A DNA stretch of 64,000 nucleotides from Candidatus Saganbacteria bacterium. Lineage in GTDB: Bacteria; Margulisbacteria; WOR-1; XYC2-FULL-46-14; XYC2-FULL-37-10. The translations under genes were made by a program, and so were the position numbers. Numbering within the stretch: position 1 is the first letter of the stretch; each line of letters begins with the position of its first letter. Below, in pieces: positions 11,299 to 34,272 of the stretch. The stretch covers positions 21,417 to 85,416 of the forward strand of contig JACRPL010000006.1 of NCBI GenBank assembly GCA_016223245.1. Reading direction: 5' to 3'. The notes beneath the pieces were generated by a model. It worked only from the letters and a program-made list of their open reading frames with translations, was not told the DNA's origin and did no database searches.

Positions 11299-12399
11299 CT
11301 ATAAGGTTATAATGAAATACTGCAGCATTTTTTCCATATCGGCAGTTACAAGGCTTTCTTGCGCCTCATTATGGAACGTGGTATAGACAACTGTGCCTTT
11401 AGAAGCGCCTGCTGGCTTGAATTGAACTGCAAGCGGCTTGTCTGACACCGTTCCTGATGCAGAAATTCCGGATGCAATTCTTACTGACTCACTTAAAACG
11501 TTGGCAGAAGAACCGGAAATTGTCGGACTTCCACGAAGAAGCACGGCAGTATCCGTCCCTTCTCCTGAAATAACAACCCAGCCGCCTAAATCATAATAAA
11601 TGCTTATCGTAGATTTGCCTAAAACATTATTTATTAAGTTCGAATCAATAACAGTAGCTTCAACTGTTTTTGATCCCGTGCCGACTTTGGCCGCAGAAAT
11701 AGATTCAGCGGTCGCCGTAGCAGTAGAATCGCTGCCATAAAAGTCGATCGCACTTGGCCATAAGGGTTCTACGAAAGCAGCTGCCCAGTCAGAAGCATAA
11801 AGGGATTTTCCTGCGACCTCCACGAAGTTTTTTAAGTTAGTTTCAGCAGTCGAAGTAAAATTGGAAGTGGAAGCCCCGCAATTAATGAAAATTGCCTCAA
11901 AAGTGCTTATGAAGGCATAATTTGCCAAATCCGAAACTTCTATGGTTGTATAAGTAAAACCTAATTTTGTAATTATATTTTCAATTGTATCATAAGATCC
12001 TTTTATTACGGCAATATCTTTTGGAGCAGTTAAATTGGCTGGAGTAAAAGTGGTTTCAGAAGTAGCAACATTTACCGTTGTGCCGGATTCGAGAGTGACG
12101 GTGAAATCGATTTTCCAAGATCCTGATTCGACCGTCACTATTTTTGTGACAGAGGCTGAAGTTACAGGGACATTTAATGTGTAAGAGCCATCAGATTTTG
12201 TAAAAGTTTCAATAATAGATCCTGTTGTCCAAACTTTGACCCCTCCAAGAGGAGTAGTCCCGTTCGCAGCATAAACGATCCCTTTTACAACGCAGGTTGC
12301 TGTTGTTTCATTAACCTTGGCACATCCCACCGTTAACACAGAAATCCCAAATCCAAAAACCAAGATCCAAATCAAAATCCCAAATCTAAATCTTTTCAT
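11299..12399 (-). CDS. Ser/Thr-rich surface lipoprotein with an N-terminal carboxypeptidase-regulatory-like domain.
   Basis: The start was moved to MKRFRFGILIWILVFGFGISVLTVGC (lipobox LTVGC), which has an AAGGAG RBS 7 nt upstream. CVVKGIVYAANGTTPLGGVKVWTTG...SDGSYTL is CarbPepD_reg-like. Confidence 0.6.
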   Translation of the reverse strand: MKRFRFGILIWILVFGFGISVLTVGCAKVNETTATCVVKGIVYAANGTTPLGGVKVWTTGSIIETFTKSDGSYTLNVPVTSASVTKIVTVESGSWKIDFTVTLESGTTVNVATSETTFTPANLTAPKDIAVIKGSYDTIENIITKLGFTYTTIEVSDLANYAFISTFEAIFINCGASTSNFTSTAETNLKNFVEVAGKSLYASDWAAAFVEPLWPSAIDFYGSDSTATATAESISAAKVGTGSKTVEATVIDSNLINNVLGKSTISIYYDLGGWVVISGEGTDTAVLLRGSPTISGSSANVLSESVRIASGISASGTVSDKPLAVQFKPAGASKGTVVYTTFHNEAQESLVTADMEKMLQYFIITL

Positions 12400-13460: not shown

Positions 13461-15281
13461 TTAATTAACAGTAAATGGCACTACATCCGTAATGATCTTG
13501 CCGGCTGTTGATTTTTCAGATGAAGCTGTTGCGCTTGTGATCAATTGTTCAACCACGTATGATGTATTGTTGGTCATGTCGTATACGTCAAAATACAGCA
13601 AACTCGACAACGGGTTAAAGTTAAAGCTGTAGATTATTACGCTTGATTTGCTCGATGTCATATCTACCGGGCTAGTTGAAACGCTTGTAAGGTCGTTGCG
13701 AAGTATCTTGCTTTCTCCGCCGTTGTTCGCTAGATAGATCAAATAATCCCCGTAAGCGCGGGCCTTATTGATCGTCCTGTATTTTGAGTGCCTGGAAAAT
13801 GCTTCGATGCTCGGCTCTCCGCTTGAGTTCACTATCCTGTAAATCCTGTCGCCCTTGACGGCCGATGTCCCCGAAGACCAGCTGTCCAATTTTAATATGG
13901 CGTATAATGATCCATTGTCAGCGAGGACCAATTGTTTTGCCCAGCCGAAATTGACCCCCTGAAGGCCGTTGGCTATTTTCCATTCGTTTTTTGTTGTGCC
14001 TGCCAAGTGCGCATTTACTTCAACGCTTATTTTATCGGCAATATTTGAAACCCAAGCGCCATGGACGGATTCGCCGGTACCGGTAATGTTCATCGCTTCA
14101 AATGTTAAACCGCCTAAGGTATCGGTGGTCGTTGAAAAATATTTTTCCCTGATGAAATTGCGTACAGTTTCTTCCGAAACTCCGCTTTCAAGGGACAGAG
14201 GAAGGGATGTGCCTCCCCAGCTATCCTGTTTGAAAAATCTTTTTTGCTCGGTCCCATCCCAGTAGCCATAAAGTATTTGGTTTGATATTGTCCTTGAATC
14301 GTCCCATGCGTTCGAATCATCATATAACGACTTGACCGACGTGATCTTCCCCGTCGTATCAAGCTTGACTTGTATGATGCCGGAATATTTCAAGAAATTG
14401 TCATTTTGGTCTTTTATCTGTAGATTTGTGCCGACCAATATAATGCTGTTATTGCTTGGCACATAATAGTATGACCTAAGCCATCCGGTGTAGCCGTCGT
14501 TATAGAAAATACTTTTGACCGAATTGTTGTAGATCAGGCGCAGCCATTCGATGCTCCAATTCCCGGCATCGGACCCGTGAAAAAGAACGAACCCGTTCGG
14601 GCAAACATAAAAATCCCTGACAGCCATCTGGCTGTTCCCGATCTGCGAAAGTACTCCTGCCGGCGTCTTTTTCTTGAGGACTGTTGTCCCGCCGCCCGAA
14701 CCCTGCGCGGTGCCGAGATAATAAAGGTTCCCGTCATTATCCCATTGTACTTGTTTTACAGGAAGATCACCATTGTTTGAATCCCCGTACCATGTGCCAA
14801 CGCCATTAAGGGTATCATCGACTGATTCAGTCGTGCCGGTTGGATATATCCTAAAGAAAGCTATTTGCCTTCCGCGGGATTCTGATGTTGAAGAGTCTTG
14901 GATCCAAACGCCCCATTGGAAACCGACGTAAAGCGAACCATCCGGGCTTTTTTCAATTACGGAAATTGGAGGGCGGGAACCAGACGGCAGATTCAATATT
15001 GATGAAAACTCTCCCGAAGCGGTTAATTTCAAAAGGTCAGTTACGTTGGCGACCAGCGCTTTAACGTCTTTTGCCAGGGCTAAACCGCTCGTTCCAGTTG
15101 ATGCGGCAGAAACAATCGCTTTAGCTCCTGAAACATCAAAAAGATTTGATACTTTAACGGAAGAAGATTGATCCCCTCCGCCGTATGAACCTTTTTGTTC
15201 GCCACAGCCAGCCACTAGCGTGGCAATGACCAATGACCAAATCCCAATGACCAACAAAGAATAGTAATAATTTTTTTTCAT
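13461..15281 (-). CDS. Large lipoprotein, 606 aa, Ser/Gly/Tyr/Trp-rich and probably beta-rich.
   Basis: MKKNYYYSLLVIGIWSLVIATLVAGCG with lipobox LVAGC. A GGAGG RBS lies upstream. The 5' end shares the AATGACC-repeat cassette with the lptD-like gene. Confidence 0.6.
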   Translation of the reverse strand: MKKNYYYSLLVIGIWSLVIATLVAGCGEQKGSYGGGDQSSSVKVSNLFDVSGAKAIVSAASTGTSGLALAKDVKALVANVTDLLKLTASGEFSSILNLPSGSRPPISVIEKSPDGSLYVGFQWGVWIQDSSTSESRGRQIAFFRIYPTGTTESVDDTLNGVGTWYGDSNNGDLPVKQVQWDNDGNLYYLGTAQGSGGGTTVLKKKTPAGVLSQIGNSQMAVRDFYVCPNGFVLFHGSDAGNWSIEWLRLIYNNSVKSIFYNDGYTGWLRSYYYVPSNNSIILVGTNLQIKDQNDNFLKYSGIIQVKLDTTGKITSVKSLYDDSNAWDDSRTISNQILYGYWDGTEQKRFFKQDSWGGTSLPLSLESGVSEETVRNFIREKYFSTTTDTLGGLTFEAMNITGTGESVHGAWVSNIADKISVEVNAHLAGTTKNEWKIANGLQGVNFGWAKQLVLADNGSLYAILKLDSWSSGTSAVKGDRIYRIVNSSGEPSIEAFSRHSKYRTINKARAYGDYLIYLANNGGESKILRNDLTSVSTSPVDMTSSKSSVIIYSFNFNPLSSLLYFDVYDMTNNTSYVVEQLITSATASSEKSTAGKIITDVVPFTVN

Positions 15282-21961: not shown

Positions 21962-22947
21962 TGCTCTTTCCATGAAGAAGAAAATATATGCGAGCCGTCT
22001 TTACGTGCTACAAAATATATATAATTCGTGTTCGCGGGATAAATAGCCGCCTTAAATGACGCAAGCCCCGGATTGCATATCGGCGTTGGAGTTAGCCCCA
22101 TGTTTTTATAGGTATTATACGGCGATCGGATTTGGAGCTGTTTTAAATATACATGCTTTGTCGGATTTTCTAATATATATTTGATCGTAGGATCTGAAGC
22201 CAACGGCATTTTCATCTTCATTCTATTATAAAAAACAGATGAGATGATTGGCCTCTCTGCATCAAGTCTTGCTTCTTTTTCAATAATTGACGCTAGGATC
22301 AAAGTGTTGTAGAAGGAAAACGTACTGTTCTTTCCATTTTCTTTCCAGTAAAACCAGAGCATTACATTAAAACGTTTAAGCATCATATTGGCAAGGACTT
22401 CGGTTGAAGTTGTTTTTTCTATTATGTAAGTATCCGGGAATAAATAGCCTTCGAAAGAATAGCTATTATTGGCTTTTAGAAAATCATATTTTAGAGCTAG
22501 TGATAAAGATAAAGGCGTGTTGGTAAGCTTTCTGAATTCTTCGAAGTGAAGAAATCCGGTCTTTTGAAGGATGCTTCCCATTTTATAGATCGAAGTCCCT
22601 TCAGGAAATGTAACCTTAATTGGATTGGGCGAGTTAGTGTCGCCGCGCCTTAGTTTTATCAGTGTTGAAACAAGCGTTCCATGAGGATTAAACGTGTATT
22701 CGCCTGATTGTATCTTGTTTTGCATATTGAGCGAGAATGCCGCAAGCTTAAAAAATAAGCTATTTTCAATAACCTTATTGGATGCAAGCATATTCGCTAT
22801 CTCATTTGCGCTTGTCCCCTGGTTTATGGATATCGAGACCAGTAGATCGTTCTTGCCGGTTTGGATAAAGATGGAAAAAAAAGACAGAATAACAAGTATC
22901 AATAATAATATTGGCAAAAGAACGAGTATTTTTTTCATTTCCTGCAT
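21934..22947 (-). CDS. mltG: Endolytic murein transglycosylase MltG (YceG-like).
   Basis: N-terminal TM helix plus a YceG-like domain (...SGEYTF...TFPEGTSIYKMGSIL...). Sits immediately downstream of ruvX. Confidence 0.75.
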   Translation of the reverse strand: MQEMKKILVLLPILLLILVILSFFSIFIQTGKNDLLVSISINQGTSANEIANMLASNKVIENSLFFKLAAFSLNMQNKIQSGEYTFNPHGTLVSTLIKLRRGDTNSPNPIKVTFPEGTSIYKMGSILQKTGFLHFEEFRKLTNTPLSLSLALKYDFLKANNSYSFEGYLFPDTYIIEKTTSTEVLANMMLKRFNVMLWFYWKENGKNSTFSFYNTLILASIIEKEARLDAERPIISSVFYNRMKMKMPLASDPTIKYILENPTKHVYLKQLQIRSPYNTYKNMGLTPTPICNPGLASFKAAIYPANTNYIYFVARKDGSHIFSSSWKEHQKARGSVL

Positions 22948-23330
22948 TCCATATAATTCTGCAAAATAAGCGCCGCGGCCGTCTTATCAATAAACTTGCG
23001 CCTTTTTTTCTCGGAAACACCAGCTTCGTCAAACATCCTATTGGCTTGAGATGAAGTCAACCTTTCATCCCATGTAACAATTGGAATAGTAACCGATTTT
23101 TTCAATTCTTCAATAAATTCCAACACTTTTTGGGCAGAGTGCCCTATCTCGCCTCTCATGGTTTTGGGAAGACCTACTACGATCTCGGATATGTCATCAT
23201 ATTGTTTGATCGTATTTTTAACTTCGTCAATATTTGAGACCACTGCTATTCCTTGAGCGGTTAACCCGAGAGGGTCGCTTATCGCAATGCCTATTCGAAC
23301 TTCACCGTAATCGATACCCATGGTCCTCAT
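22935..23330 (-). CDS. ruvX: Putative pre-16S rRNA nuclease / Holliday-junction resolvase-like YqgF.
   Basis: MGIDYGEVRIGIAISD RNase H-like motif. The start was moved to the internal Met (MRTMGIDYG), which abuts the alaS stop. Confidence 0.85.
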   Translation of the reverse strand: MRTMGIDYGEVRIGIAISDPLGLTAQGIAVVSNIDEVKNTIKQYDDISEIVVGLPKTMRGEIGHSAQKVLEFIEELKKSVTIPIVTWDERLTSSQANRMFDEAGVSEKKRRKFIDKTAAALILQNYMECRK

Positions 23331-25987
23331 ATTAATTCTATTGCCTTCTTCAGAGCTTCCTCGATCCTTGAAATATCGCGCCCACCCGCTTCGGCCTTGT
23401 TCGGCCGCCCGCCGCCGCCGCCGCCGCAAGTTTCGGCTAGTACTTTTGCAAGCTTGCCCGCATGATAGCCTTTTTTCACTAGATCATCCGTTACGATCAC
23501 CAAGAACGATATTTTATCGGATATTGTTGATGCAAGGATTATTATTCCCGATCTAAGCGAATCACGGAGTTTGTCGCCCATAATTCGCATATTATCAACC
23601 GGAACCTCTATTAACGATGCCTTAAGGACGACGATATCTTTTATCTTTTCAGTTTGTGATAGGAGAGAGTCGGCTTCTAATAAGGATTTTTTTGCTTCAA
23701 GATCGTCAATTTCTTTTTGGATGTTCTTGTTCCTCTCTCTTGCCCATTCAAGCCTTCCCTCAAGATGCTCAAGGAATTTGTTTACGCGGATCGAGTCTTT
23801 TTCATCAACTGCTTGGCCCAGGGTGTTTAATTCGGTGGGGTCAACTTCAAAAATGCCTTCATCAAGGAAAGCTCCGCCGCCAAGCAACTGCTTTTTTGCC
23901 TGAAGTATTGCGTGGTGGCGCATAAGATCATCGATCTGAATATGGAGATCTTTTGCCTTGTAAACTATGGCAGCTTTGGACAGATCTCCTGCAATTGCTT
24001 CAATTCTCCTTACTCCCGATTGTAAGGCTTCCTCTTTTATGATCTTGAAAAAAACGATATCTTTAGTATTATCAACATGACAGCCGCCGCAAAGCTCAAG
24101 GCTTAAATCGCCTATCTTTACTACCCTAACTTTGTCGCCATATTTTTCGGAAAATAAAGCCATCGCACCGAGTTTTTTTGCTTCATTGAGGTTTGTTTCA
24201 AATTTTTCGACTTTAATGGCCTTTTTAATATTCTCATTAACGATCCTCTCAACTTCAGCTGTTTCTTGTTTTGTCATCGCACGATTGAAGCTAAAATCGA
24301 AGCGCAAACGGTCAGGGCCAACGTACGATCCCGCTTGTTTTGCCATATCGCCCAAGGTTTTTCTCAAAGCCGCATGAAGCAGATGAGTTCCAGTGTGGTG
24401 GGCCATTATATTTTTTCTTTTACTTTCATCTACCTTGGCATGAACATGGTCCCCGATCTTTAAGCGATCTATATTATCGAGACGATGAAGGATCACTCCG
24501 CCAATTTCGCCGTATGTTCCAATAACAATGCTTTCGTTTATGATCCCGGTATCTCCAATTTGGCCTCCGCCCTCCGGATAAAATGGCGTCTTATCGAGAA
24601 TTACGATGTTCTCGTCAGGAATGATCTCCAATATCTTTGCGTCGGACTCAAGTTTGTCGTAACCCACAAAATTTGTTTTACCGTGTTTTTCTTCGAAAGT
24701 ATTCTTTAATCTTAAGATCGAATCCTCAAGTTTAAAGGCTCCTGCCCTTGCGCGTTCTCTTTGTTCTCCCATTAAATTTTCGAATTCAGCTTTGTTGATC
24801 GAATACCCTCTTTCAATCGCGAACTCTTCGGTTATTTCATATGGGAAGCCAAAAGTATCATGAAGTTTAAAAACATCGATTCCGGCAAGCTTTTTGTCGG
24901 TAGCATGCTTTGCAAATAGTTCTTCCAGTAATTTCATGCCTGATTCAAGTGTATTATTGAAACCGATCTCTTCAGATCTGATAGTCTCTTCGATTATTTT
25001 TGATTGGGTTGCAAGTTCAGGATAAGTTCCCTTTCCTTGTTCGATAACTGTCCTTGATAATTCCGATAAGAAGGGCATTTGCATCTTTAATTTTCTTCCG
25101 TTTAGTATCGCTCGCCTGATAATTCTTCGTAGAACATAGCCTCGCCCTTCATTTGACGGCAATACTGAATCGGAGATCAAATATGTCATCGCGCGCAAAT
25201 GGTCGGCAATTATTTTGCTGGAAGCGCTTCTATCGGGAAGTTTTTCAAAGATCGGAGTGAATAAATCCGTATCGAAATTATCTGTTTTTCCCTGCAGAAC
25301 TCTCGATATCCTCTCAAGCCCCATACCGGTATCAATATTCTTCTTTGGGAGAGGTTTTAACTCTCCGGCCTCGTTGCGATTATATTGAATGAACACAAGA
25401 TTCCATATCTCCAGGAATCTCTCGCAATCACAAGCAGGATTGCAGTCGGGCTTATCGCATTTGACGCCGGAGTCATAATATATTTCAGAACAAGGTCCAC
25501 AAGGACCTGTAGGCCCTGCTGACCAAAAATTGTTTTCCTCATCAAGCCTATAGATCTTTTCTTTGGGTATTCCTATTTTTTTATTCCAAATATCATAGGC
25601 TTCATCATCTTTTTCATAGATCGCGATGACGAGTTTTTCTTTTTCGATCTTGTAGGCTTCGGTTAAAAGCTCCCAAGCGTATGCTATCGCATCTTCTTTG
25701 AAATAATCGCCGAAAGAAAAATTCCCAAGCATCTCAAAGAATGTATGATGCCTGGTCGTCTTCCCGACATGTCCTATGTCGTTCATGCGTATGCATTTTT
25801 GTACGGTTGTAACGCGTTTATATTTTGGGGATTCGGTTCCCAAGAATATCGGCTTGAACGGAAGCATTCCCGCTAAAGTTAATAAAACTGTCGGGTCAGA
25901 CGGGATTAGCGAAGCGGAAGGCTGGCGCTTATGCCCCTTTTTCTCGAAGAATTCTAAGAATTGTTCTCTAATTTCAGAACTTTTCAT
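23327..25987 (-). CDS. alaS: Alanine--tRNA ligase.
   Basis: Class II core motifs, the editing-domain HxxxH...CGGCH zinc motif, and a C-terminal GGGGGGRP glycine motif. 886 aa. Confidence 0.95.
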   Translation of the reverse strand: MKSSEIREQFLEFFEKKGHKRQPSASLIPSDPTVLLTLAGMLPFKPIFLGTESPKYKRVTTVQKCIRMNDIGHVGKTTRHHTFFEMLGNFSFGDYFKEDAIAYAWELLTEAYKIEKEKLVIAIYEKDDEAYDIWNKKIGIPKEKIYRLDEENNFWSAGPTGPCGPCSEIYYDSGVKCDKPDCNPACDCERFLEIWNLVFIQYNRNEAGELKPLPKKNIDTGMGLERISRVLQGKTDNFDTDLFTPIFEKLPDRSASSKIIADHLRAMTYLISDSVLPSNEGRGYVLRRIIRRAILNGRKLKMQMPFLSELSRTVIEQGKGTYPELATQSKIIEETIRSEEIGFNNTLESGMKLLEELFAKHATDKKLAGIDVFKLHDTFGFPYEITEEFAIERGYSINKAEFENLMGEQRERARAGAFKLEDSILRLKNTFEEKHGKTNFVGYDKLESDAKILEIIPDENIVILDKTPFYPEGGGQIGDTGIINESIVIGTYGEIGGVILHRLDNIDRLKIGDHVHAKVDESKRKNIMAHHTGTHLLHAALRKTLGDMAKQAGSYVGPDRLRFDFSFNRAMTKQETAEVERIVNENIKKAIKVEKFETNLNEAKKLGAMALFSEKYGDKVRVVKIGDLSLELCGGCHVDNTKDIVFFKIIKEEALQSGVRRIEAIAGDLSKAAIVYKAKDLHIQIDDLMRHHAILQAKKQLLGGGAFLDEGIFEVDPTELNTLGQAVDEKDSIRVNKFLEHLEGRLEWARERNKNIQKEIDDLEAKKSLLEADSLLSQTEKIKDIVVLKASLIEVPVDNMRIMGDKLRDSLRSGIIILASTISDKISFLVIVTDDLVKKGYHAGKLAKVLAETCGGGGGGRPNKAEAGGRDISRIEEALKKAIELI

Positions 25988-26002
25988 AATTATTTACTTG
26001 AA

Positions 26003-26059
26003 CAAACTAACCTGCGAGTAAACCCTGCCTGCCGGTAGGCACGGCTCGCGGTTAGTTTG
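26003..26059. repeat. GC-rich palindromic repeat element, copy 1, intergenic between tmk and alaS.
   Basis: CAAACTAACC-TGCGAGTAAACCCTGCCTGCCGGTAGGCACGGCTCGC-GGTTAGTTTG: 10-bp terminal inverted repeats around a near-palindromic GC-rich core. It lies 16 bp upstream of the alaS start codon. Confidence 0.6.
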
Positions 26060-26078
26060 AATTTCATAACCACGGCGT

Positions 26079-26690
26079 TTAGCCGCTGGTAGAAAAATAT
26101 TTCTCAATCTCCTCCCTAATTCTATTTTGTACATCTTCAACCGGCATCGTACTATTAATGACCTTAACTCTTTTTTTATCGTTTTGGGCGATCTCCAAAT
26201 ATTTATCCCTGACCCTTTCATGAAAGGCGACGATCTCTTTTTCAAATCGGTCGATATTCCCTCTTTCTTTCGCCCTCTTGAGGCCAACTTCGACCGGAAC
26301 ATCGAGCAGGATAGTAATATCGGGAACTAGTCCGCGGCTCGCTACCCAATTTACATATCTTACCAAATCTTCTGGAAGGCCGCGGCCCCCCAATTGGTAT
26401 GCCAGAGTTGAATCCATATACCTATCGCAGATAATTGTTTTCTTTTTATCTAGCGCCGGTTTAATTATTTTTTCAACATGCTCTACCCTGTCTGCCGCGA
26501 AAAGGAAAATTTCCGACAGTATTTCCGGCTCTTTTTCCAATAAGATCTTTCTTAATTCCATTCCAAGCGATGTTCCGCCTGGTTCTTTGGTTATCACGAC
26601 ATCTTGGCCTTTAGATGCAAGGTATTTTGATAATAATTCGATCTGTGTTGTTTTTCCGCAGCCTTCCCCGCCTTCAAAAGAGATGAACAT
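26079..26690 (-). CDS. tmk: Thymidylate kinase.
   Basis: P-loop FISFEGGEGCGKTT, DRY-type motif and a LID region. 203 aa. Confidence 0.93.
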   Translation of the reverse strand: MFISFEGGEGCGKTTQIELLSKYLASKGQDVVITKEPGGTSLGMELRKILLEKEPEILSEIFLFAADRVEHVEKIIKPALDKKKTIICDRYMDSTLAYQLGGRGLPEDLVRYVNWVASRGLVPDITILLDVPVEVGLKRAKERGNIDRFEKEIVAFHERVRDKYLEIAQNDKKRVKVINSTMPVEDVQNRIREEIEKYFSTSG

Positions 26691-26698
26691 GTTCCCTC

Positions 26699-28258
26699 CT
26701 AGTTTATGCCGAAGTTGAAATTAAATTCATTCCTCATTACACGATATGCAAAAGTTATATTGAAGCAATGGATCCCGATGCGGACAAGATAATCGAATTC
26801 TCGGGGACTTAAATCCGGTAAATTATATAAAACGTTGATACCGTATTTGCTTCCATCATTTCCTGCCATAAATCCCGCATTTATTTGGTTTGAAGCTGTA
26901 AAGCGATACATTTCATAAGTAAACGGGCTTGTTCCTCTATTTAGGATGAAAGTCCTAAATCCCACACCGGTTGATAAGAATGGGGACCATGTCTTGTACA
27001 ATTCAAGGCCGCCAACGGTTTTTAGCCAACGGGTCCCGTTGCCGCCTTGCCTGCCGGCAGGCAGGTAGAAAGAATGGTCGTTATCCAAAATAACCTTTAT
27101 TATGCCGATTTGAAGGTCGAGAAGCGATGCCGAAACGCCAAGTTTTGCGTTTGAATAAGTTTGTGATGCCCCAGATGATTCTTCGGAAATAAACCCGAGA
27201 GAGAGAGATCCTGACATATCAAATTTATCATATGCCCATTTTTTAAGCGACAAAGATAAAAGCGGGAACTGGCTTACCCTTTCATAATTTATCCTTTCAT
27301 TTAATGCCATTTTGGACGAAAGCTCGAATTGTTTAACAGTATCAATGTTAAATAATTTTAGGGCGAACGGCCCATCGCTCTTTACTTCATTGCCAAAAAG
27401 ATAATTATGGGCAAATATGACAGAGATCGGGTCTTTCGAATCCCCGGATATTTTGAAATTTCCGCTGTTTTGGGCGTCTTTAATATAATTAAGGTCTAAT
27501 CCGGCCCCAAGATATTTCTTCGCAGCATAGTTTACCGCGATATTTCCGCTCAAGCTCCTGCTTACATGCCAAGGCAAGCTTTGGGAAATATAAGCTCCAT
27601 CAAGATCGTTTGATCCAAAAACCGGATAAGGCATTTGGTGGGCCAAACCTTTTTCTTCGGCTTTAAGGTCGTATATATAGACTGGTACCGGTGTCGTAGC
27701 TACGCCGTCCAGCCAAAACCTGGCCCAATAACAAATAAGCCATCCGTCCTTGGGATATAAAATAATATTATCGGCCTGAAAATGATAATGCGGTGTAAAT
27801 AGATCGCAAGTCGTGAATTCCGCATTTTTTAGGTCAATTTTGTCCTCGTCCATCTTAACTAGGTCTCCAGTCAGCGTAACATTTTTGTAGAGCAATTTTA
27901 CTTTATTTGCAGCACCGATCCTTGTGTTTAGATTGAAATCTAATACATCTCCCGAAAAATAAAGGCCTTGATATAGAAGTTTGAAGCCCGCATCCGTTTT
28001 AATATTCTTGTCCGCCGTAAAATATAAGAATTTTTCGCCAGATGCCTTGAGGTCTTTATATGTTACCTCGACTGATCCTATCGCTTCGACATATTTCCCG
28101 TCATCGGAATAATTGAGCGTTTGGGCGTTGATCGAGAGATCCTTGTCTTGGGCAAAGACTTGCGTTGATAATATAATAAGCAAAATGACCAATGACCAAT
28201 GACCAATGACCAACAAGGAATAGATTATAGAATAAATACATTGTTGGGATTTGGTCAT
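26699..28258 (-). CDS. LptD/OstA-like outer-membrane LPS-assembly protein.
   Basis: Signal peptide, then an OstA-like N-terminal domain (...LNYSDDGKYVEAIGSVEVTYKDLKASGEKFLYF...) and a beta-rich C-terminus. 519 aa is short for LptD. Confidence 0.55.
   Translation of the reverse strand: MTKSQQCIYSIIYSLLVIGHWSLVILLIILSTQVFAQDKDLSINAQTLNYSDDGKYVEAIGSVEVTYKDLKASGEKFLYFTADKNIKTDAGFKLLYQGLYFSGDVLDFNLNTRIGAANKVKLLYKNVTLTGDLVKMDEDKIDLKNAEFTTCDLFTPHYHFQADNIILYPKDGWLICYWARFWLDGVATTPVPVYIYDLKAEEKGLAHQMPYPVFGSNDLDGAYISQSLPWHVSRSLSGNIAVNYAAKKYLGAGLDLNYIKDAQNSGNFKISGDSKDPISVIFAHNYLFGNEVKSDGPFALKLFNIDTVKQFELSSKMALNERINYERVSQFPLLSLSLKKWAYDKFDMSGSLSLGFISEESSGASQTYSNAKLGVSASLLDLQIGIIKVILDNDHSFYLPAGRQGGNGTRWLKTVGGLELYKTWSPFLSTGVGFRTFILNRGTSPFTYEMYRFTASNQINAGFMAGNDGSKYGINVLYNLPDLSPREFDYLVRIGIHCFNITFAYRVMRNEFNFNFGIN
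27048..27063. repeat. Core palindrome TGCCTGCCGGCAGGCA, copy 3, in-frame within the lptD-like gene.
   Basis: A perfect 16-bp palindrome identical to the core of the element in mutS. It encodes LPAGR in ...FYLPAGRQGGNG.... Confidence 0.5.
28184..28211. repeat. AATGACC heptanucleotide tandem repeat, four copies, encoding the Trp-rich signal-peptide core of the lptD-like gene.
   Basis: Read directly from the sequence: aatgacc x4. On the minus strand it translates to LVIGHWSLVI. Its inverted copy TTGGTCATTGG lies at 28251-28261, spanning the start codon. Confidence 0.7.
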
Positions 28259-28270
28259 TGGGATTTACTG

Positions 28271-29647
28271 CTAGCCAACTTCTTCATAGCGGCTTTCTTT
28301 ATTGCAGAATTTGGCAATGTCTTTGCGGAAGACCAATTCGACAGTGCCGACAGGGCCGTTCCTTTGTTTCGCGATAATAATTTCGGCTATATTCCCGCGT
28401 TCTGATTGTGGATTGTAATAATCGTCCCTATGGATGAACATTACAAGGTCAGCCGTTTGTTCAATTTCTCCCGATTCCCTAAGGTCCGATAGCCTTGGTA
28501 TCCTATCGTTTCGCTGTTCAACCGCCCTTGAAAGTTGCGACAGTGCAATTACGGGAAGATCAAGTTCGCGTGCAAGGGTCTTAAGCGACCGTGAGATTTC
28601 CGAAATTTCCTGCACCCTGTTTTCGATCCTGCCCCTGCCAGACATAAGCTGCAAGTAATCGATCATGACCATTCCAAGCCCTTTTTCAAGTTTGAGCCTT
28701 CTGCATTTTGCCCTTATTTCCATTGCGGTGATCGAAGCCGAATCGTCAATGTATATCTGGGCTTCGGAGAGTTTTGACAAGGCGCGCGTCAACTTCTTCC
28801 AACCGGTATCAGGGAGTGTTGCTGTTTTAAGCTTTATTGCGTCGATCTCCGCCTCTGAACACAGCATTCTTTGGGCAAGCTGGTCTTTGCTCATTTCAAG
28901 CGAGAAGATCGCGACAGGTATCTTGAATTTTATTGCCATATTTTGGGCCATGTTCAATGCAAATGCGGTTTTTCCAACCGACGGCCTTGCCGCGATAATT
29001 ATTAGGTCGGAATTCTGGAACCCGGCTGTCAGATTGTCAAGATCGGTATAGCCTGTTGGAATGCCTGTAATGTGCTCTTTTTTCCCGTATAGCCTGTCGA
29101 TCCTGTCTAAAACTTTTGTCAAAATCGAATCTAACTTGTGGAATCCTTCTTTTGTCCGTTTTAATGCGATATCGAAGATCGTTTTTTCTGCATGGTCCAA
29201 TATACTGTCAACATTGTCCGGTTCATCGAACGCTTCCGATACAATATACGTTCCGGCATCGATCAATCGCCTCAATGTCGCTTTTTCTTCAACGATCCGC
29301 GCGTAATATTCGATATTTGCGGCTGTCGGGACGGAATTAATAAGGTCCGCAATATAACCGGATCCTCCAGAAGAGTCAAGCTTGTTGCTTTTCCGAAGGC
29401 TTTCGCCCACAGTGACAAGGTCTACAGGTTCGCCTCGGTCAAACAGGTCGAGGATCGTTTCGTAAATATATTTGTGCGCATCGCGGTAAAAGCTGTCCGC
29501 GTGCAGGATCTCGATTGCTTTTACAATCGCGGCCTTGTCAATCAATAACGATCCAATTACTGATTGTTCTGCTTGCAGGTTTTGCGGTGGAATTCTTTCT
29601 TCGGCCATGAGATGTAAATTATAACATATGTTGACATTGATTTCCAA
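28271..29647 (-). CDS. dnaB: Replicative DNA helicase DnaB.
   Basis: N-terminal DnaB domain and a RecA-like domain with Walker A ARPSVGKT and Walker B MVMIDYLQLM. 458 aa. Confidence 0.95.
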   Translation of the reverse strand: MEINVNICYNLHLMAEERIPPQNLQAEQSVIGSLLIDKAAIVKAIEILHADSFYRDAHKYIYETILDLFDRGEPVDLVTVGESLRKSNKLDSSGGSGYIADLINSVPTAANIEYYARIVEEKATLRRLIDAGTYIVSEAFDEPDNVDSILDHAEKTIFDIALKRTKEGFHKLDSILTKVLDRIDRLYGKKEHITGIPTGYTDLDNLTAGFQNSDLIIIAARPSVGKTAFALNMAQNMAIKFKIPVAIFSLEMSKDQLAQRMLCSEAEIDAIKLKTATLPDTGWKKLTRALSKLSEAQIYIDDSASITAMEIRAKCRRLKLEKGLGMVMIDYLQLMSGRGRIENRVQEISEISRSLKTLARELDLPVIALSQLSRAVEQRNDRIPRLSDLRESGEIEQTADLVMFIHRDDYYNPQSERGNIAEIIIAKQRNGPVGTVELVFRKDIAKFCNKESRYEEVG

Positions 29648-29719
29648 GCGTACTAGAATTATGCCAAATGGAATGAATTATTCGGCTTTTAATACGGCAA
29701 TTTCCGGAAAAATATTGGG

Positions 29720-32194
29720 TCAGGCATTTATTACAGGAACATTCGATCGATGATCAAATCCCAGGTCATTTTCAACCATCTCAAGCGTTGTATATATCTC
29801 TTTAGCCCTTGAAATCACGTCATTCGGGAGCCCCGCTAACCGCGCAACTTGGATCCCATACGATCTATCTGCAGAGCCCTCGACTATCTTATGTAAAAAT
29901 GTTATTTGATCGCCTTCTTCTTTTATCTGGATATTCAGATTTTTCATGCCTTTATGTTTTTCCGCAAGCTGAGTGATCTCATGGTAGTGAGTCGCGAATA
30001 AAGTTTTTGCTTTGATGTTGTTATTGATGAATTCGGCAACAGCCGCAGCGATAGACATCCCGTCAAAAGTCGCCGTCCCTCTGCCTATTTCATCAAGTAT
30101 TATCAAACTATTTTCAGTCGCATTGTTCAGGATATTCGCGGTTTCGGTCATCTCGAGCATAAATGTTGATTGTCCTGAATATATATCATCCATAGCCCCA
30201 ATTCTTGTGAAGATTTTGTCTATTAACGGCAATATTGCATTATCGGCCGGGACAAACGAACCCATTTGTGCCAAAAGGCATATTAACGCGGTCTGTCTCA
30301 TGTAAGTAGATTTACCTGCCATGTTAGGGCCAGTGATCAGCAGGAAACTACTTTCATTGTTCATCAAGATATCGTTTTTTACAAAATTATGGTTTCCAAG
30401 CATTTTTTCGACTACCGGATGCCGTGATCCGGTTATCAGGATATCAGTGGATCCGGATATCAGGGGGCGGCAATAATTGTTTTCTTGCGCGACTTGTGCC
30501 AATGAGATCAAGACATCGAGTTGGGATAATATCTCCGCAATATATTGTAATTCTTTTGTAAATCCTGCGGCTTTTTCACGTACATCGCAGAAAATCTTAT
30601 ATTCCAGTTCTTTGATCCTTTCATCGGCATTTAGGATCAGAGATTCCTTTTCTTTTAAGTCAGGCGTTATATATCTTTCGCAATTAGTAAGTGTTTGTTT
30701 TCTAATATAATTTGCAGGCACTTGAGACAGGTTTGCCGTTGTGACCTCGATATAATATCCGAAAACTTTATTAAAACCTACTTTGAGGGATTTGATACCG
30801 CTTGCTATCCTTTCTTTGTTCTCAAGTTCGGCGATCCAGCTTTTTCCGCCATAAGCTATCTTTCTCAATTCATCCAGCTCATTATCATAAGAATCGTTTA
30901 TTATCCCGCCTTCTTTAATAGTGAACGGAGGATCAATCTTTATGGCTTTATTTATTAATTCCTTGAGTTCAAGAAGTTCCGGAAGATCATTGACATGTTT
31001 TAGCATTTTCGATTTGCATTTTGAAGTTAACGTTTTAAAGAATGGGATCTCTTTTAACGATTCATTTAGAGAAACAATATCTTTTGCGTTTCCCTGCTCT
31101 GTTGCAATTTTTGATGTTAGTCTTTCAATATCATAGAGATTCTTAAGTCTTTGTGTTAGCTCTGCTTTTAAAATTGTATCTCCTATAAGTTCATCAATTG
31201 CATCGAAACGGGCATTTATTTTATCTATTTCCATTAAAGGCATAAGAAGCCAATTTCTAAGAAGCCTGCTTCCCATATTTGTTTCGCATCTATCAAGCAC
31301 CCAGAGTAAGGCCCCTTTTAAGGATTTATCTTTAATAGATTGAACGAGTTCAAGGTTTCTTCTTGTTTGGGCGTCTATAAGCATATATTGGCCGATCGCA
31401 TAAGGCGTAATTTTGTTAATGTGGCCCAGAGCAGTTTTCTGGTTGTCTTCAAGATAATCCAAGGCAGCTGCAGCGGCGGATAAACCAACTGAATAGTTCT
31501 CAATTCCGAATGAGGCAAGAGATTTTATTTTGAAGAATTTTGAAAGTTTTTCTTCTGCTTCGGATTGGTCGTATTTGTCTTTGTAGCTTTCAATCCTAAT
31601 AGACGGAACCTGCGAGTGAACCCTGCCTGCCGGCAGGCACGGCTCGCGGTTCCTTTTCTCATCAATCATGTCGGAAAGAAGTATCTCCGATGGTTTTATC
31701 CTATTTATTTCATCGAGGAGATCTTTTAAAGTATCGATTTCTGTAACTTTAAATTCACCAGTCGAAGCATCCGTATAAGCTAGACCAAACTTGCCTTTCT
31801 CAAAAGATACGACAAGAAGATAATTGTTTGTCTTATCGGTTAGCATTGAAGTACCAATAATTGTCCCAGGGGTATATATCTTTATTACATCTCTTTTAAC
31901 CAGCCCTTTAGCAAGCTTTGGGTCTTCGACTTGTTCGCAGATAGCAACTTTGTATCCTTTTTCGACAAGTTTTCCAATATAATTTTCGGCCGCATGGAAT
32001 GGTATCCCGCACATCGGCATTCTGTTCTCGGAAATTCCCCTGCCAGTTAATGTGAGGCCAAGTTCGCGCGATCCAAGCTCTGCATCATCGTAGAACATTT
32101 CATAGAAGTCGCCCAAGCGGAAAAAAAGGATTGCATCCTTGTGCTGTGATTTTATTTCCCGATATTGTTTTATCATCGGGGTTTGGTCTGTCAT
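29720..32194 (-). CDS. mutS: DNA mismatch repair protein MutS.
   Basis: Mismatch-binding N-terminus (GDFYEMF), Walker A GPNMAGKST, ABC signature ...STFM.E..E, and a C-terminal HTH. 824 aa. Carries a 16-aa in-frame insertion from the palindromic repeat. Confidence 0.95.
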   Translation of the reverse strand: MTDQTPMIKQYREIKSQHKDAILFFRLGDFYEMFYDDAELGSRELGLTLTGRGISENRMPMCGIPFHAAENYIGKLVEKGYKVAICEQVEDPKLAKGLVKRDVIKIYTPGTIIGTSMLTDKTNNYLLVVSFEKGKFGLAYTDASTGEFKVTEIDTLKDLLDEINRIKPSEILLSDMIDEKRNREPCLPAGRVHSQVPSIRIESYKDKYDQSEAEEKLSKFFKIKSLASFGIENYSVGLSAAAAALDYLEDNQKTALGHINKITPYAIGQYMLIDAQTRRNLELVQSIKDKSLKGALLWVLDRCETNMGSRLLRNWLLMPLMEIDKINARFDAIDELIGDTILKAELTQRLKNLYDIERLTSKIATEQGNAKDIVSLNESLKEIPFFKTLTSKCKSKMLKHVNDLPELLELKELINKAIKIDPPFTIKEGGIINDSYDNELDELRKIAYGGKSWIAELENKERIASGIKSLKVGFNKVFGYYIEVTTANLSQVPANYIRKQTLTNCERYITPDLKEKESLILNADERIKELEYKIFCDVREKAAGFTKELQYIAEILSQLDVLISLAQVAQENNYCRPLISGSTDILITGSRHPVVEKMLGNHNFVKNDILMNNESSFLLITGPNMAGKSTYMRQTALICLLAQMGSFVPADNAILPLIDKIFTRIGAMDDIYSGQSTFMLEMTETANILNNATENSLIILDEIGRGTATFDGMSIAAAVAEFINNNIKAKTLFATHYHEITQLAEKHKGMKNLNIQIKEEGDQITFLHKIVEGSADRSYGIQVARLAGLPNDVISRAKEIYTTLEMVENDLGFDHRSNVPVINA
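31605..31653. repeat. GC-rich palindromic repeat element, copy 2, in-frame inside mutS.
   Basis: GGAACC-TGCGAGTGAACCCTGCCTGCCGGCAGGCACGGCTCGC-GGTTCC. It encodes NREPCLPAGRVHSQVP within MutS. About 90% identical to copy 1. Confidence 0.6.
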
Positions 32195-32313
32195 TGTACT
32201 TCATCCTTTAAAGTGGATTTACCTTTATAAGTTCTAAATATATAGTGATAGTGCATGATTTTTTTAACCGCGGCGTTCAGCCGCAGGTACTACAAGTCTT
32301 CAAAAGCGCCGGC

Positions 32314-34272
32314 CTAAGACTTTCGTATTGTGACGCCCAGTTTCTCTTCCAAAGCTGAAATCACTGCAACAAATCTCTCATTCACAGCTTCGTCTGTTAA
32401 AGTTGAATTCTTATCGCGAAAAGACAGCCTATAAGCCTGGCTGTTTTTGTACTGGTCAAAAAGCTTAACTTCCTCAAGAAATGGACCGGCTGTTTCTTTG
32501 ATCGAAGTGACGATTTGATCGTATGTAATCCCCTCCGGCACAAACATTGCCAAATCACGGTCAATTTTAGGGAATTTAGAAAGAGCAGTGTGATCTTTCA
32601 TCGCTTTTAAACTGAGAAGAGCTTGAATTTCAACTTCAAATAAATAAACATCTCTGTTCAAATCATATGTTTTCTTTTTCACAGGATGAATAAGCCCCAA
32701 TTTGGCAACATACATGCCTGCTGCAGACAAAGATGCTGATTGCACAGGGTGATACCATTGATCAATTAATCCCTCCTCAATAATATTAAAAGTATACTCT
32801 TTAGAGAATTGATTGATCAGCGTTTCAATGATGCCCTTTATTTCACGAAAACCGGCTTTGGGCGCGAAAATAGACCCTGCAAGAACCAGCCTTTCATGCA
32901 CTTTATTTCCAAATACCTTGCCAACTTCAAAAATTCCAAGTTCGTCAACTTGATGCCTTAAGTTATAGGAAACAACCCTTAATATACTAGGCAGCATGCT
33001 GGTTCTCATTACCGACTCGGATATAGTCATAGGATTAGTGATCTTAATTGCGTTCTTCTCGGCATCGGACGGATCGACCAAACTGAAGGTCTGGACCTCA
33101 TACAACCCTGTCCCTATAAGGATATTTTTGATATTTGAAACTTTGGAGTACACCGTTTCTGTGATCTCTGTTTTTCCGATCTTTGGGCTTGTGACTGGAA
33201 TATTGTGATACCCAAAAATTCTGGCGATCTCTTCAATAAGGTCTATTTCCCTCTCAATATCGGCATAACGCCAGGTTGGGACCTCCACGATAATTTTAGA
33301 TTTGCTGTTTTTGAGAAGTTTAAAGCCAAGCCCTTTAAGTATTTTAATAGCTGTCCCTTGAGGAACAGGAACGCCGAGTATTGCATTAAGCCGCTCAAAC
33401 CTAAGTGCGATCCTTCTTTTCTTAATGTCTTGTTTTTTCTTATCAATTTGCCCCCTCAAAACAACTCCGCTGGCCAATTCCGCGACCATTGAAGCCGCGG
33501 CATCTAAAGCGGTTTCAACCATATTCCAATCTGTAGTTTTTTCAAACCGGGCAGAGGATTCTGTCCTAAGCTTTAGGGATTTGGAAGTTTTAGAAATATT
33601 TATCGGATCAAAATATGCGGATTCCAGGACAACAGTTTTTGTTTTTGCCGAAACCTCCGTGTTTGCCCCTCCCATCACCCCTGCAACCGCAATGGCCCTG
33701 TTTGCATCCGCTATTACAAGACTGTCCTTGTCCAATTTGAAATCCGCGCCGTCAAGCGTCTTAATTTTTTCTTGGGGAGCAGCCCGCCTGACAATGATCT
33801 TTTGTCCTTGTATCTTATCGTGGTCAAAAGCGTGCATCGGCTGGCCAAGCTCAAGCAGAAGATAATTTGTAATATCCACAATGTTATTGATAGGCCTTAA
33901 TCCGCATGTGCTAAGCCGTTTCTTAAGCCAATCGGGTGAGTCTTTAACTTTAATGTTTTCAATGACTCTCGCCATATAACGAGGGCAAAGCTTCGGTTCT
34001 CTTATTTCAACACTGACAACGGGAGAAGTTTTCTTTTCCGATTCATAACGTTTTAATCTTTTCATTTTCAGTTTTGAGCTTGTTATCGAAGAAACTTCTC
34101 TTGCAATACCGAGAATTGAACTGCAATCGCCGCGGTTTGGCAGGATATCTACATCCAATGAGTCGTTTAACGACAATGTTTCAAGCCCCGACATAGTAAG
34201 CTTTTGGGCAAGATCTGATGCCGGAATTTTTACATCAACATATTCCTTTAGCCAATCGATCGGTACTCTCAT
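32314..34272 (-). CDS. pheT: Phenylalanine--tRNA ligase beta subunit, short form without the N-terminal tRNA-binding (Myf) domain.
   Basis: B3/B4 region LPNRGDCSSILGIAREV, B5 domains and a C-terminal anticodon-binding-like region. 652 aa. Its start is coupled to the pheS stop. Confidence 0.9.
   Translation of the reverse strand: MRVPIDWLKEYVDVKIPASDLAQKLTMSGLETLSLNDSLDVDILPNRGDCSSILGIAREVSSITSSKLKMKRLKRYESEKKTSPVVSVEIREPKLCPRYMARVIENIKVKDSPDWLKKRLSTCGLRPINNIVDITNYLLLELGQPMHAFDHDKIQGQKIIVRRAAPQEKIKTLDGADFKLDKDSLVIADANRAIAVAGVMGGANTEVSAKTKTVVLESAYFDPINISKTSKSLKLRTESSARFEKTTDWNMVETALDAAASMVAELASGVVLRGQIDKKKQDIKKRRIALRFERLNAILGVPVPQGTAIKILKGLGFKLLKNSKSKIIVEVPTWRYADIEREIDLIEEIARIFGYHNIPVTSPKIGKTEITETVYSKVSNIKNILIGTGLYEVQTFSLVDPSDAEKNAIKITNPMTISESVMRTSMLPSILRVVSYNLRHQVDELGIFEVGKVFGNKVHERLVLAGSIFAPKAGFREIKGIIETLINQFSKEYTFNIIEEGLIDQWYHPVQSASLSAAGMYVAKLGLIHPVKKKTYDLNRDVYLFEVEIQALLSLKAMKDHTALSKFPKIDRDLAMFVPEGITYDQIVTSIKETAGPFLEEVKLFDQYKNSQAYRLSFRDKNSTLTDEAVNERFVAVISALEEKLGVTIRKS

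Follow-up and report, generated by a model that had tools for sequence, protein, structure and literature searches.

We analysed a family of small GC-rich palindromic repeats in a 64,000-nt stretch of DNA, here called the window, from a Candidatus Saganbacteria bacterium (assembly GCA_016223245.1, contig JACRPL010000006.1, positions 21,417 to 85,416 of the forward strand). The copies lie in and between genes that are all on the minus strand, namely alaS (23327..25987), tmk (26079..26690), an open reading frame (ORF) for an exported LptA/LptD-like protein of 519 aa (26699..28258), dnaB (28271..29647), mutS (29720..32194) and pheT (32314..34272). Two of the copies are 45-nt composites of a 24-nt hairpin that resembles repetitive extragenic palindromes (REPs) and a 21-nt palindromic core. 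Composite copy 1 (26009..26053, plus strand) is intergenic, between the stop codon of tmk and the start of alaS; its arms (26009-26018 and 26045-26053) enclose the loop TAAAC (26019-26023) and the core (26024-26044), and the stem is lengthened by the flanks 26003-26008 and 26054-26059. Composite copy 2 (31607..31651, plus strand) is inside mutS, where it makes up exactly codons 182-196 and encodes the peptide NREPCLPAGRVHSQV, with the loop TGAAC at 31617-31621 and the core at 31622-31642. The two composites share 43 of 45 nt, differing at two positions. A solo 21-nt core, CTGCCTGCCGGCAGGCAAGGC on the coding strand, is found at 27044..27064 (minus strand) as codons 399-405 (LPAGRQG) of the exported ORF; a GGC repeat leaves an uncertainty of up to 3 nt in where it starts and stops.

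Bare hairpins, without a core, were not found in the window at up to three mismatches, and looser matching gave two. The first, TACCAGCGGCTAAACGCCGTGGTT (26068..26091, minus strand), is a fuzzy match with five substitutions, for which each of 20 shuffles gave zero matches. Its orientation is opposite to that of copy 1, from which 14 nt separate it, and the pair therefore forms a doublet of the REPIN kind. This hairpin overlaps the end of tmk (...FSTSG, then stop), giving the last three codons and the TAA stop; as the TAA sits in the hairpin loop, the element has remodelled the 3′ end of the gene. The second is a variant, TACCTGCGGCTGAACGCCGCGGTT, with the stem GCGGC/GCCGC, located at 32266..32289 (minus strand) in the pheT-mutS spacer, directly upstream of the stump of a transposase gene. 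With the two composites, this brings the hairpin to four copies in 64 kb. A 16-nt version of the core, TGCCTGCCGGCAGGCA, is present exactly at 27048-27063 and 31624-31639 and with one mismatch at 26026-26041; allowing up to three mismatches, the window holds four matches against 0.17 expected, a number reached by 0 of 100 shuffles. The elements are 64-76% GC, in a window with a mean of 41%.

An earlier note on this DNA had described one GC-rich family of about 50 bp, with three copies standing out from AT-richer DNA. All three copies are where it placed them, and their GC contrast holds. The repeat is real, and what was taken as a single family is a composite of a 24-nt hairpin with a 21-nt palindrome nested in it; the three sites stand, and the two bare hairpins (26068-26091 and 32266-32289) and the transposase stump (32191-32256) had been missed. 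We read these copies as selfish DNA of two kinds, both very small, non-coding and able to form hairpins, nested in each other, and give this reading a probability of about three in four.

The outer unit is a 24-nt imperfect palindrome, AACC-T-GCGAN-TRAAC-NTCGC-GGTT, built from stems of 4 bp and 5 bp, with a bulged T between them, and the 5-nt loop TRAAC. A metagenome scan with the pattern AACCTGCGANTRAACN{1,23}TCGCGGTT returned at least 120 loci. Among the matches listed, 133 of 136 copies were bare 24-mers, and the stem position that the pattern leaves unconstrained was complementary in every one (GCGAC/GTCGC in 73, GCGAA/TTCGC in 49 and GCGAG/CTCGC in 11). A looser census, run on about 0.7 Mb of Saganbacteria/Margulisbacteria-type contigs that had been chosen for holding a copy, counted 224 copies, which fall into 51 variants. 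Pairing was seen in at least 95.5% of the cells at every one of the nine stem pairs, and four pairs showed compensatory changes. In the loop, T, R, A and A were fixed throughout and the final C was present in 218 of the 224 copies, while the bulge was T in 199. A conserved loop and bulge together with a freely covarying stem is the pattern predicted by recognition through a protein. Inverted doublets were found not only in the window (26009-26053 with 26068-26091) but also in L144, L151, L165 and L173. About a fifth of the listed hairpin copies (26 of 136) are in long open frames, where they are read in various frames and orientations as EPRRLVAGS, GNRDVQSQVS, EPATKRRGS, KPANKLRGF or ETATFSRRF.

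Genes of the Y1 transposase family (Y1_Tnp) adjoin the hairpins in five loci (L124, L157, L185, L239 and L163). In L124, pheT and mutS are separated by a Y1_Tnp gene for a protein of 126 aa, with hairpins upstream and, inverted, downstream of it. Inverted hairpins on both sides of the gene are found in four of the five loci (L124, L157, L185 and L163); L239, whose Y1 gene was detected solely via similarity to the L124 protein, is atypical. The L124, L157 and L185 proteins score above the NF033573 (NCBIfam IS200) cut-off and below that of NF047646 (REP-associated tyrosine transposase, RAYT), and the L163 protein exceeds the NF047646 cut-off. The gene order pheT-Y1-mutS is common to L124 and L157.

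The same site in the window is a 120-nt spacer. It holds the variant hairpin at 32266-32289, which matches the hairpin (ACCCTGCGGCTAAACGCCGCGGTT) upstream of the intact Y1 gene in L157, and after this hairpin ATG CAC TAT CAC TAT ATA TTT AGA ACT TAT AAA GGT AAA TCC..., encoding MHYHYIFRTYKGKS. What is left of the gene is a remnant of 21 codons of IS200/RAYT type, MHYHYIFRTYKGKSTLKDEVQ followed by a stop (32191..32256, minus strand), which overlaps the start codon of mutS; the remainder has been deleted. The N-terminus of this stump agrees with those of the intact Y1 proteins encoded in L157 (MYYHYIFKTYKGKSC) and L124 (MYYHYTFRTHKGKSC), which occupy the same pheT-Y1-mutS site. Judged by its sequence, the spacer is a decayed transposase locus that is intact in related contigs, and the site offers a natural gain-and-loss series. 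With the local gene reduced to a stump, the copies in the window are either relics or dependent on a copy elsewhere in the genome.

An alternative is that selection keeps the hairpins for a regulatory function in the host, as a terminator, an attenuator or an mRNA-stabilising stem-loop between tmk and alaS, with the copies inside genes being incidental. Copy 1 forms an intergenic stem-loop directly after tmk and 15-21 nt ahead of the alaS start, and its predicted fold is very stable (-32 to -33 kcal/mol, z -6.4 to -6.7); for the composites as a group the values are about -32 kcal/mol and z -4.6 to -6.7, far better than for shuffles. The neighbouring hairpin provides the tmk stop codon, and REPs, which lie mostly downstream of ORFs, are thought to work as RNA elements (PMC3733652). 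However, no terminator-like site was called in 25700-26400, where the stem is followed by TTCAAGTAAA and no T-run, so that the idea of a terminator or attenuator put forward in the earlier note for this copy was not borne out. Rfam, at gathering score, gave zero matches in the whole window. Moreover, the same sequence is found inside ORFs in several frames and orientations, and the conserved loop and bulge, the covarying stems and the adjacent transposase gene fit recognition by an enzyme. We consider a regulatory origin improbable, and a secondary regulatory role could be compatible with selfish hairpin DNA.

Evidence for precise gain or loss of both units comes from MutS, for which we aligned 120 orthologs from Saganbacteria and Margulisbacteria. 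The window protein, which is 100% identical to an NCBI protein labelled Candidatus Saganbacteria, has all five MutS domains, each scoring strongly, and the insert is in domain II (connector), where the local alignment to E. coli MutS is poor and gapped. The closest orthologs (66-70% identical) have no insert at this site, and other orthologs bear GNREV(H/Y)SQV, which is the window peptide minus PCLPAGR. At the DNA level, mutS of L121 reads AAC CGC GAA GTT CAT TCG CAG GTT, the hairpin without a core, and mutS of the window reads AAC CGC GAG [CCG TGC CTG CCG GCA GGC AGG] GTT CAC TCG CAG GTT, so the 21-nt palindrome has the loop of a 24-nt hairpin on one side and an arm of it on the other. The stem is GCGAA/TTCGC in L121 and GCGAG/CTCGC in the window, a compensatory change. 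Across the alignment, this one loop holds hairpin-encoded peptides in 33 of the 120 orthologs, in three frames or orientations (EPRRLVAGS, GNREVHSQV and KPANKLRGF), and the three different readings indicate that the site has been colonised repeatedly. Peptides encoded by the core are present in 10 of the 120 orthologs, at about six sites.

A pair of MutS proteins that are 91% identical, P0058 and P0070, differ by only three indels, one of 7 aa (the core), one of 7 aa (a variant of the core) and one of 8 aa (a REP). In the DNA, the first indel is exactly 21 nt (GAAGAC/CCT against GAAGAC-CTGCCTGCCGGTAGGCAAGGT-CCC), a clean empty and filled pair with no target duplication beyond one ambiguous base. 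A second REP hairpin in mutS of L124, at 3868-3891 of that contig and codons ~397-404 of P0058 (EEPRSSFAGS), is missing from P0070. The exported ORF shows the same precision, with 20 of 20 orthologs being without exactly the seven residues LPAGRQG. That ORF gave no match in a Pfam search and is named by its homologs only, two of which JGI calls LptA, so the label lptD-like used in the earlier note is unverified. The view that selfish hairpins had entered ORFs in frame and been tolerated there is upheld by the empty sites in the closest MutS proteins and in all the LptA-like orthologs, and the comparison of MutS orthologs likewise came out in its favour.

One may ask whether the MutS and LptA-like segments are instead ordinary variable loops under protein-level selection, the DNA similarity being a by-product. 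The MutS site is length-variable in all relatives and, as noted, poorly alignable to E. coli MutS. Against this, the intergenic copy is nearly identical to the mutS copy at the DNA level, one 24-mer is read in three frames or orientations at a single protein site, the two host genes read their LPAGR from the palindrome in different registers, and the inserts are missing from the closest orthologs. These results contradict a protein-level account, which we regard as very improbable.

The MutS hot spot also holds other palindrome-encoded peptides, in P0077, P0084, P0088, P0091, P0094 and others. These include AGLKTCAT (GCAGGTCTGAAGACCTGC, back-translated) and VAQTFRSA / VAETFRFP (GCGGAAACTTTCCGC), and their form suggests that further mini-hairpin families may exist in these phyla.

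The inner unit is a 21-nt GC-rich palindrome, CTGCCTGCCGGCAGGCA(C/A)GGC, with no stop codon in any of the six frames. A scan with the pattern CCTGCCTGCCGGNAGGCACGG over a 596-Gb collection, with one genome per species, found at least 120 loci. The loci listed come from metagenome-assembled genomes (MAGs) labelled Patescibacteria (many groups), Bacteroidota, Chloroflexota, Acidobacteriota, Nitrospirota, Planctomycetota, Omnitrophota, Methylomirabilota, Proteobacteria, Actinomycetota and Firmicutes, among others. Sixty-four of the at least 120 loci are below 45% GC, a composition at which fewer than 0.3 chance matches are expected in the whole 596-Gb collection. The base following the pattern was C in 97 of the 121 listed cases, and the flanks of the core were complementary (-8 kcal/mol or better) in 25%, compared with 9.5% of permuted controls. 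The presence of the 21-mer across phyla is well supported as an observation, and both units are abundant outside the window, in agreement with the selfish hairpin repeats that the earlier note had proposed.

All genome matches are MAGs or uncultured bins, which raises the question of whether the palindrome is a sequencing or assembly artefact at hairpins. The matches, however, belong to many independent record series and naming schemes, and in conserved genes the unit forms an in-frame insert whose edges are exactly 21 nt apart. To our knowledge, the core matches no known adapter sequence. An artefact is hardly credible, and we return to the core as selfish DNA.

Conserved proteins hold the core in frame in many of these lineages. 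In UvrB it adds residues relative to the solved Bacillus protein, and further hosts are UvrA, Mfd, RadA, DnaX, three class II ribonucleotide reductases (RNRs), NusA, an IleRS-like synthetase, MiaA, MurB, Fmt and others. The core is also found in repeats of several other kinds. On Saganbacteria-type contigs, we counted about 14 core sites in 643 kb, of which three or four are within REP hairpins and at differing positions of the hairpin; REP hairpins are well under 1% of this DNA. A Rikenellaceae MAG has the core in three REPs of quite different type (GCTCCGTAGGAGC...GTTGGTAG), which flank the Y1 gene of that genome. The Methylomirabilota MAG DATEAO01 has five copies of a palindromic repeat of about 150 nt with ends CAGGCTGCTGAAAAAGGCCCATCTGC.../...GCATCTGGACCTTTTTGAACAGCCTG, which resembles a miniature inverted-repeat transposable element (MITE), and the core is at the centre of each (L021, L027, L031, L045 and L051). 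In L001 and L030 the core lies within heptamer tandem repeats. Head-to-tail arrays occur as well, with at least four units in a 649-codon open frame of a Planctomycetaceae MAG (L053, 2228-2311) and two tandem units around 4690-4737 of the viral contig L251.

Two side observations concern the hosts and surroundings of the core. Replication and repair genes (Mfd, UvrA, UvrB, RadA, DnaX, RNR x3 and MutS) are about a quarter to a third of the conserved in-frame hosts, the core-bearing ORFs in question being those of L029, L040, L081, L086, L095, L108, L112 and L119; this share parallels the bias published for intragenic REPs, and could stem from protein size and not from targeting. In Bacteroidota and other phyla, the core is found in hairpins composed of recurring "words" such as gattgcttc...cgcaatgac and gagcctgtcgaag...cgacaagctcag (L019, L052, L109, L020, L035, L078, L118 and others). 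The same words also occur as spurious peptides in MAG annotations, and there may be a vocabulary of hairpin modules common to several phyla.

These observations suggest the following mechanism. The 24-nt hairpin would be non-autonomous, and we infer that its mobilising activity is the Y1 HUH transposase encoded beside it, which would bind the bulged hairpin in single-stranded form and act in trans to copy or move it; mobilisation of this kind is established for IS200/IS605 and has been proposed for REP/RAYT (PMC6006769, PMC3116915, PMC3733652). The core, for its part, would go in as an exact 21-nt block, with no detectable target duplication, both into hairpins, REPs included, and into coding sequence. 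Its own shape, a bulged hairpin CC-TGCCTGCC/GGCAGGCA-C-GG, suggests that another enzyme acting on single-strand hairpins may be involved. Once a REP holds a core, the 45-nt composite may then spread as one unit, which explains the two near-identical copies of the window. Because 24, 21 and 45 nt are all multiples of three and the core is free of stops, insertions add 7-16 residues and leave the frame unbroken. Copies would persist where a protein tolerates an extra loop, as in MutS domain II, and selection would clear the others; the inserts that remain are probably neutral for the host.

As for the core itself, we propose tentatively, at somewhat less than even odds, that the 21-mer is an undescribed and exceptionally small mobile element of many phyla that goes in as an exact 7-codon block, prefers hairpins and is moved by some enzyme. 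A literature search by core sequence and encoded peptides found nothing relevant, BLAST of the core region against plasmids gave only weak matches at chance level (E ~0.2 or more), and a 21-nt unit common to many phyla and nested in unrelated REP families appears to be undescribed.

Alternatively, the core may not move by itself. It could be a passenger in larger repeats, or arise by gene conversion or by template-switching during replication at palindromes, leaving the Y1-linked hairpin as the sole mobile unit. In keeping with this, the core has the same position, between the loop and the same arm, in both composites of the window and in L239, and is shifted by just one base in L077; the three core-bearing REPs of the Rikenellaceae MAG have one common insertion point, the Methylomirabilota cores all lie in a single palindromic repeat, and one MutS variant insert is centred in a pre-existing palindrome (ACCTG/CAGGT) whose ends resemble the core ends. 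On the other hand, solo cores are found in unique coding sequence with no repeat around them, both in the LptA-like ORF and in MutS (ICEQVED/PKLA, the clean 21-nt empty site), and in UvrB, RadA, DnaX, RNR and other genes of other phyla. The position of the core also varies between REP hairpins, with L174 and L143 differing from the window, and de novo growth of palindromes cannot yield an identical 21-mer in many phyla. A core without movement of its own is, in our view, unlikely, less so than a regulatory origin of the hairpins.

Several results weigh against two nested kinds of selfish hairpin DNA. On the side of the hairpin, tblastn and phmmer found no intact Y1 homolog in the 64-kb window, and the adjacency of hairpins and Y1 genes is an association only. 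The 24-nt hairpin has no unpaired GTAG or CGTC tag, its ends AACC/GGTT being paired and CGTC being present only within the stem of one hairpin variant; such an unpaired tag defines most catalogued REP families (Di Nocera super-families) (PMC3733652). The covariation counts are inflated by the relatedness of the copies, many sequences going back to few independent events. Presence or absence among relatives cannot tell an insertion from a precise deletion, and for the 8-aa REP indel, compared between L123 and L124, L123 is not a clean empty site. On the side of the core, tblastn and phmmer placed a Y1 gene at one (L104) of the at least 120 core loci listed. Clustering of the ORFs near the core across phyla gave no common mobility gene, the clusters being generic only (kinases, ABC transporters, helicases, DnaX, XerC-like), and the seven viral contigs with a core, mostly of high GC, showed no sign of a phage vector.

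Among known systems, the nearest to the outer hairpin are REPs and REPINs with a RAYT or IS200-type Y1 gene, sometimes called REPtrons, which are likewise short imperfect palindromes, dispersed and often in inverted doublets (PMC3733652; PMC3116915). As here, the hairpins flank one small Y1 gene in inverted orientation, and in-frame copies within genes, notably DNA repair genes, are known (PMC3733652). Most catalogued families differ from the hairpin of the window in their GTAG/CGTC tag; with 24 nt the hairpin is also among the shortest of its kind, about one in five copies here are in open frames, and most of the adjacent enzymes score as IS200-type and not as RAYT-type. Our literature search found no record of REPs for the uncultured phylum of the host. 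Intragenic REPs, many of which lie in genes for replication and repair, are documented, as are Rickettsia palindromic elements (RPEs) inserted in frame (PMC3733652), and the outer hairpin and the insertion in MutS are therefore not new in kind.

The earlier note had likened the repeat to RPEs, a comparison that is apt for behaviour, since in either case selfish palindromic repeats have entered functional housekeeping genes in frame and are tolerated there (PMC3733652), and that fails for membership. The units here are of 21, 24 and 45 nt and in another host lineage, and it is by length and host that we set them apart. RPE-1 is about 100-150 bp long and not known outside Rickettsia, and we know of no transposase that goes with it.

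Small dispersed repeats (SDRs) of Nostocaceae, reportedly described by Elhai et al. (2008, Genome Res 18:1484), are elements of about 20-27 nt for which mobility is proposed (PMC2884548, PMC5861425). By description, the 21-nt unit is like them in size and in its exact 21-nt presence or absence between related genomes, and unlike them in its spread, being in many phyla where SDRs are reported only in Nostocaceae (PMC5861425). By this analogy, the core would most resemble SDRs among known elements. SDRs frequently lie inside other SDRs and inside heptamer tandem repeats, and the core here is likewise found in heptamer repeats (L001 and L030) and within other repeats. The phylum of the host is considered a sister group to the Cyanobacteria.

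IS200/IS605 elements also have a Y1 HUH transposase of about 130 aa and bulged subterminal hairpins, and their transposition via single-stranded DNA without target duplication is established (PMC6006769); the clean pair described above likewise has no duplication beyond 1 nt. Unlike their hairpins, those described here disperse singly, as units of 24 nt distant from the gene. The GC clusters of yeast mitochondria are GC-rich palindromic mini-elements in an AT-rich genome and can sit in frame in a gene. Palindromic coding repeats known as PARCELs have spread by horizontal transfer across distant taxa (PMC2996958), and are tandem protein repeats of 25 residues in contrast to the single 7-codon inserts here; both GC clusters and PARCELs have other hosts and other sequences.

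Four further candidates were rejected. There is no CRISPR array, and integron attC sites do not fit at the ends and are at odds with copies in frame in genes. Restriction sites or uptake sequences cannot account for exact 21-nt indels. MITEs, at 70-300 bp with terminal inverted repeats and a target-site duplication, do not match units of 21-45 nt without a duplication longer than 1 nt.

The findings bear on the minimum size of a mobile element and on how selfish DNA lives in essential genes. With a length that is a multiple of three and no stops on both strands, the core cannot truncate or frameshift a protein in either orientation. The hairpin and Y1 pair links a REP-like family of Saganbacteria and Margulisbacteria to a candidate enzyme, and the MutS hot spot, with its repeated independent colonisation of one loop, extends the known build-up of REPs in replication and repair genes. 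If the core does move on its own, it would be a parasite of parasites, landing in other selfish REP elements, and the same LPAGR / PAGRQ / CRQA peptides would have been written into housekeeping proteins across the bacterial tree, notably those of replication and repair. Were its independence confirmed, the 21-mer would provide a new marker of horizontal exchange among uncultured lineages, and would time and again give rise to small insertions in proteins and, in the annotation of MAGs, to spurious "hypothetical" peptides.

The window holds other small repeats. A (GCC)n run of about 8 units at 23404-23429, in the 3′ part of alaS, overlaps the start of the ORF 22935..23429. Heptamer tandem repeats are present at the N-termini of three ORFs (28184-28213, 15224-15254 and 12342-12390). 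Two of these repeats, AATGACC x4.3 and CAATGAC x4.4 (coding strand TTGGTCA), each code for the hydrophobic core of a signal peptide (..YSLLVIGHWSLVIL.. and ..YSLLVIGIWSLVIATLVAGC..), and the two 40-nt stretches are 90% identical; the third, AAATCCA x7.3, is at the start of another ORF. We take these N-terminal repeats to resemble the short tandemly repeated repetitive (STRR) heptamers of cyanobacteria.

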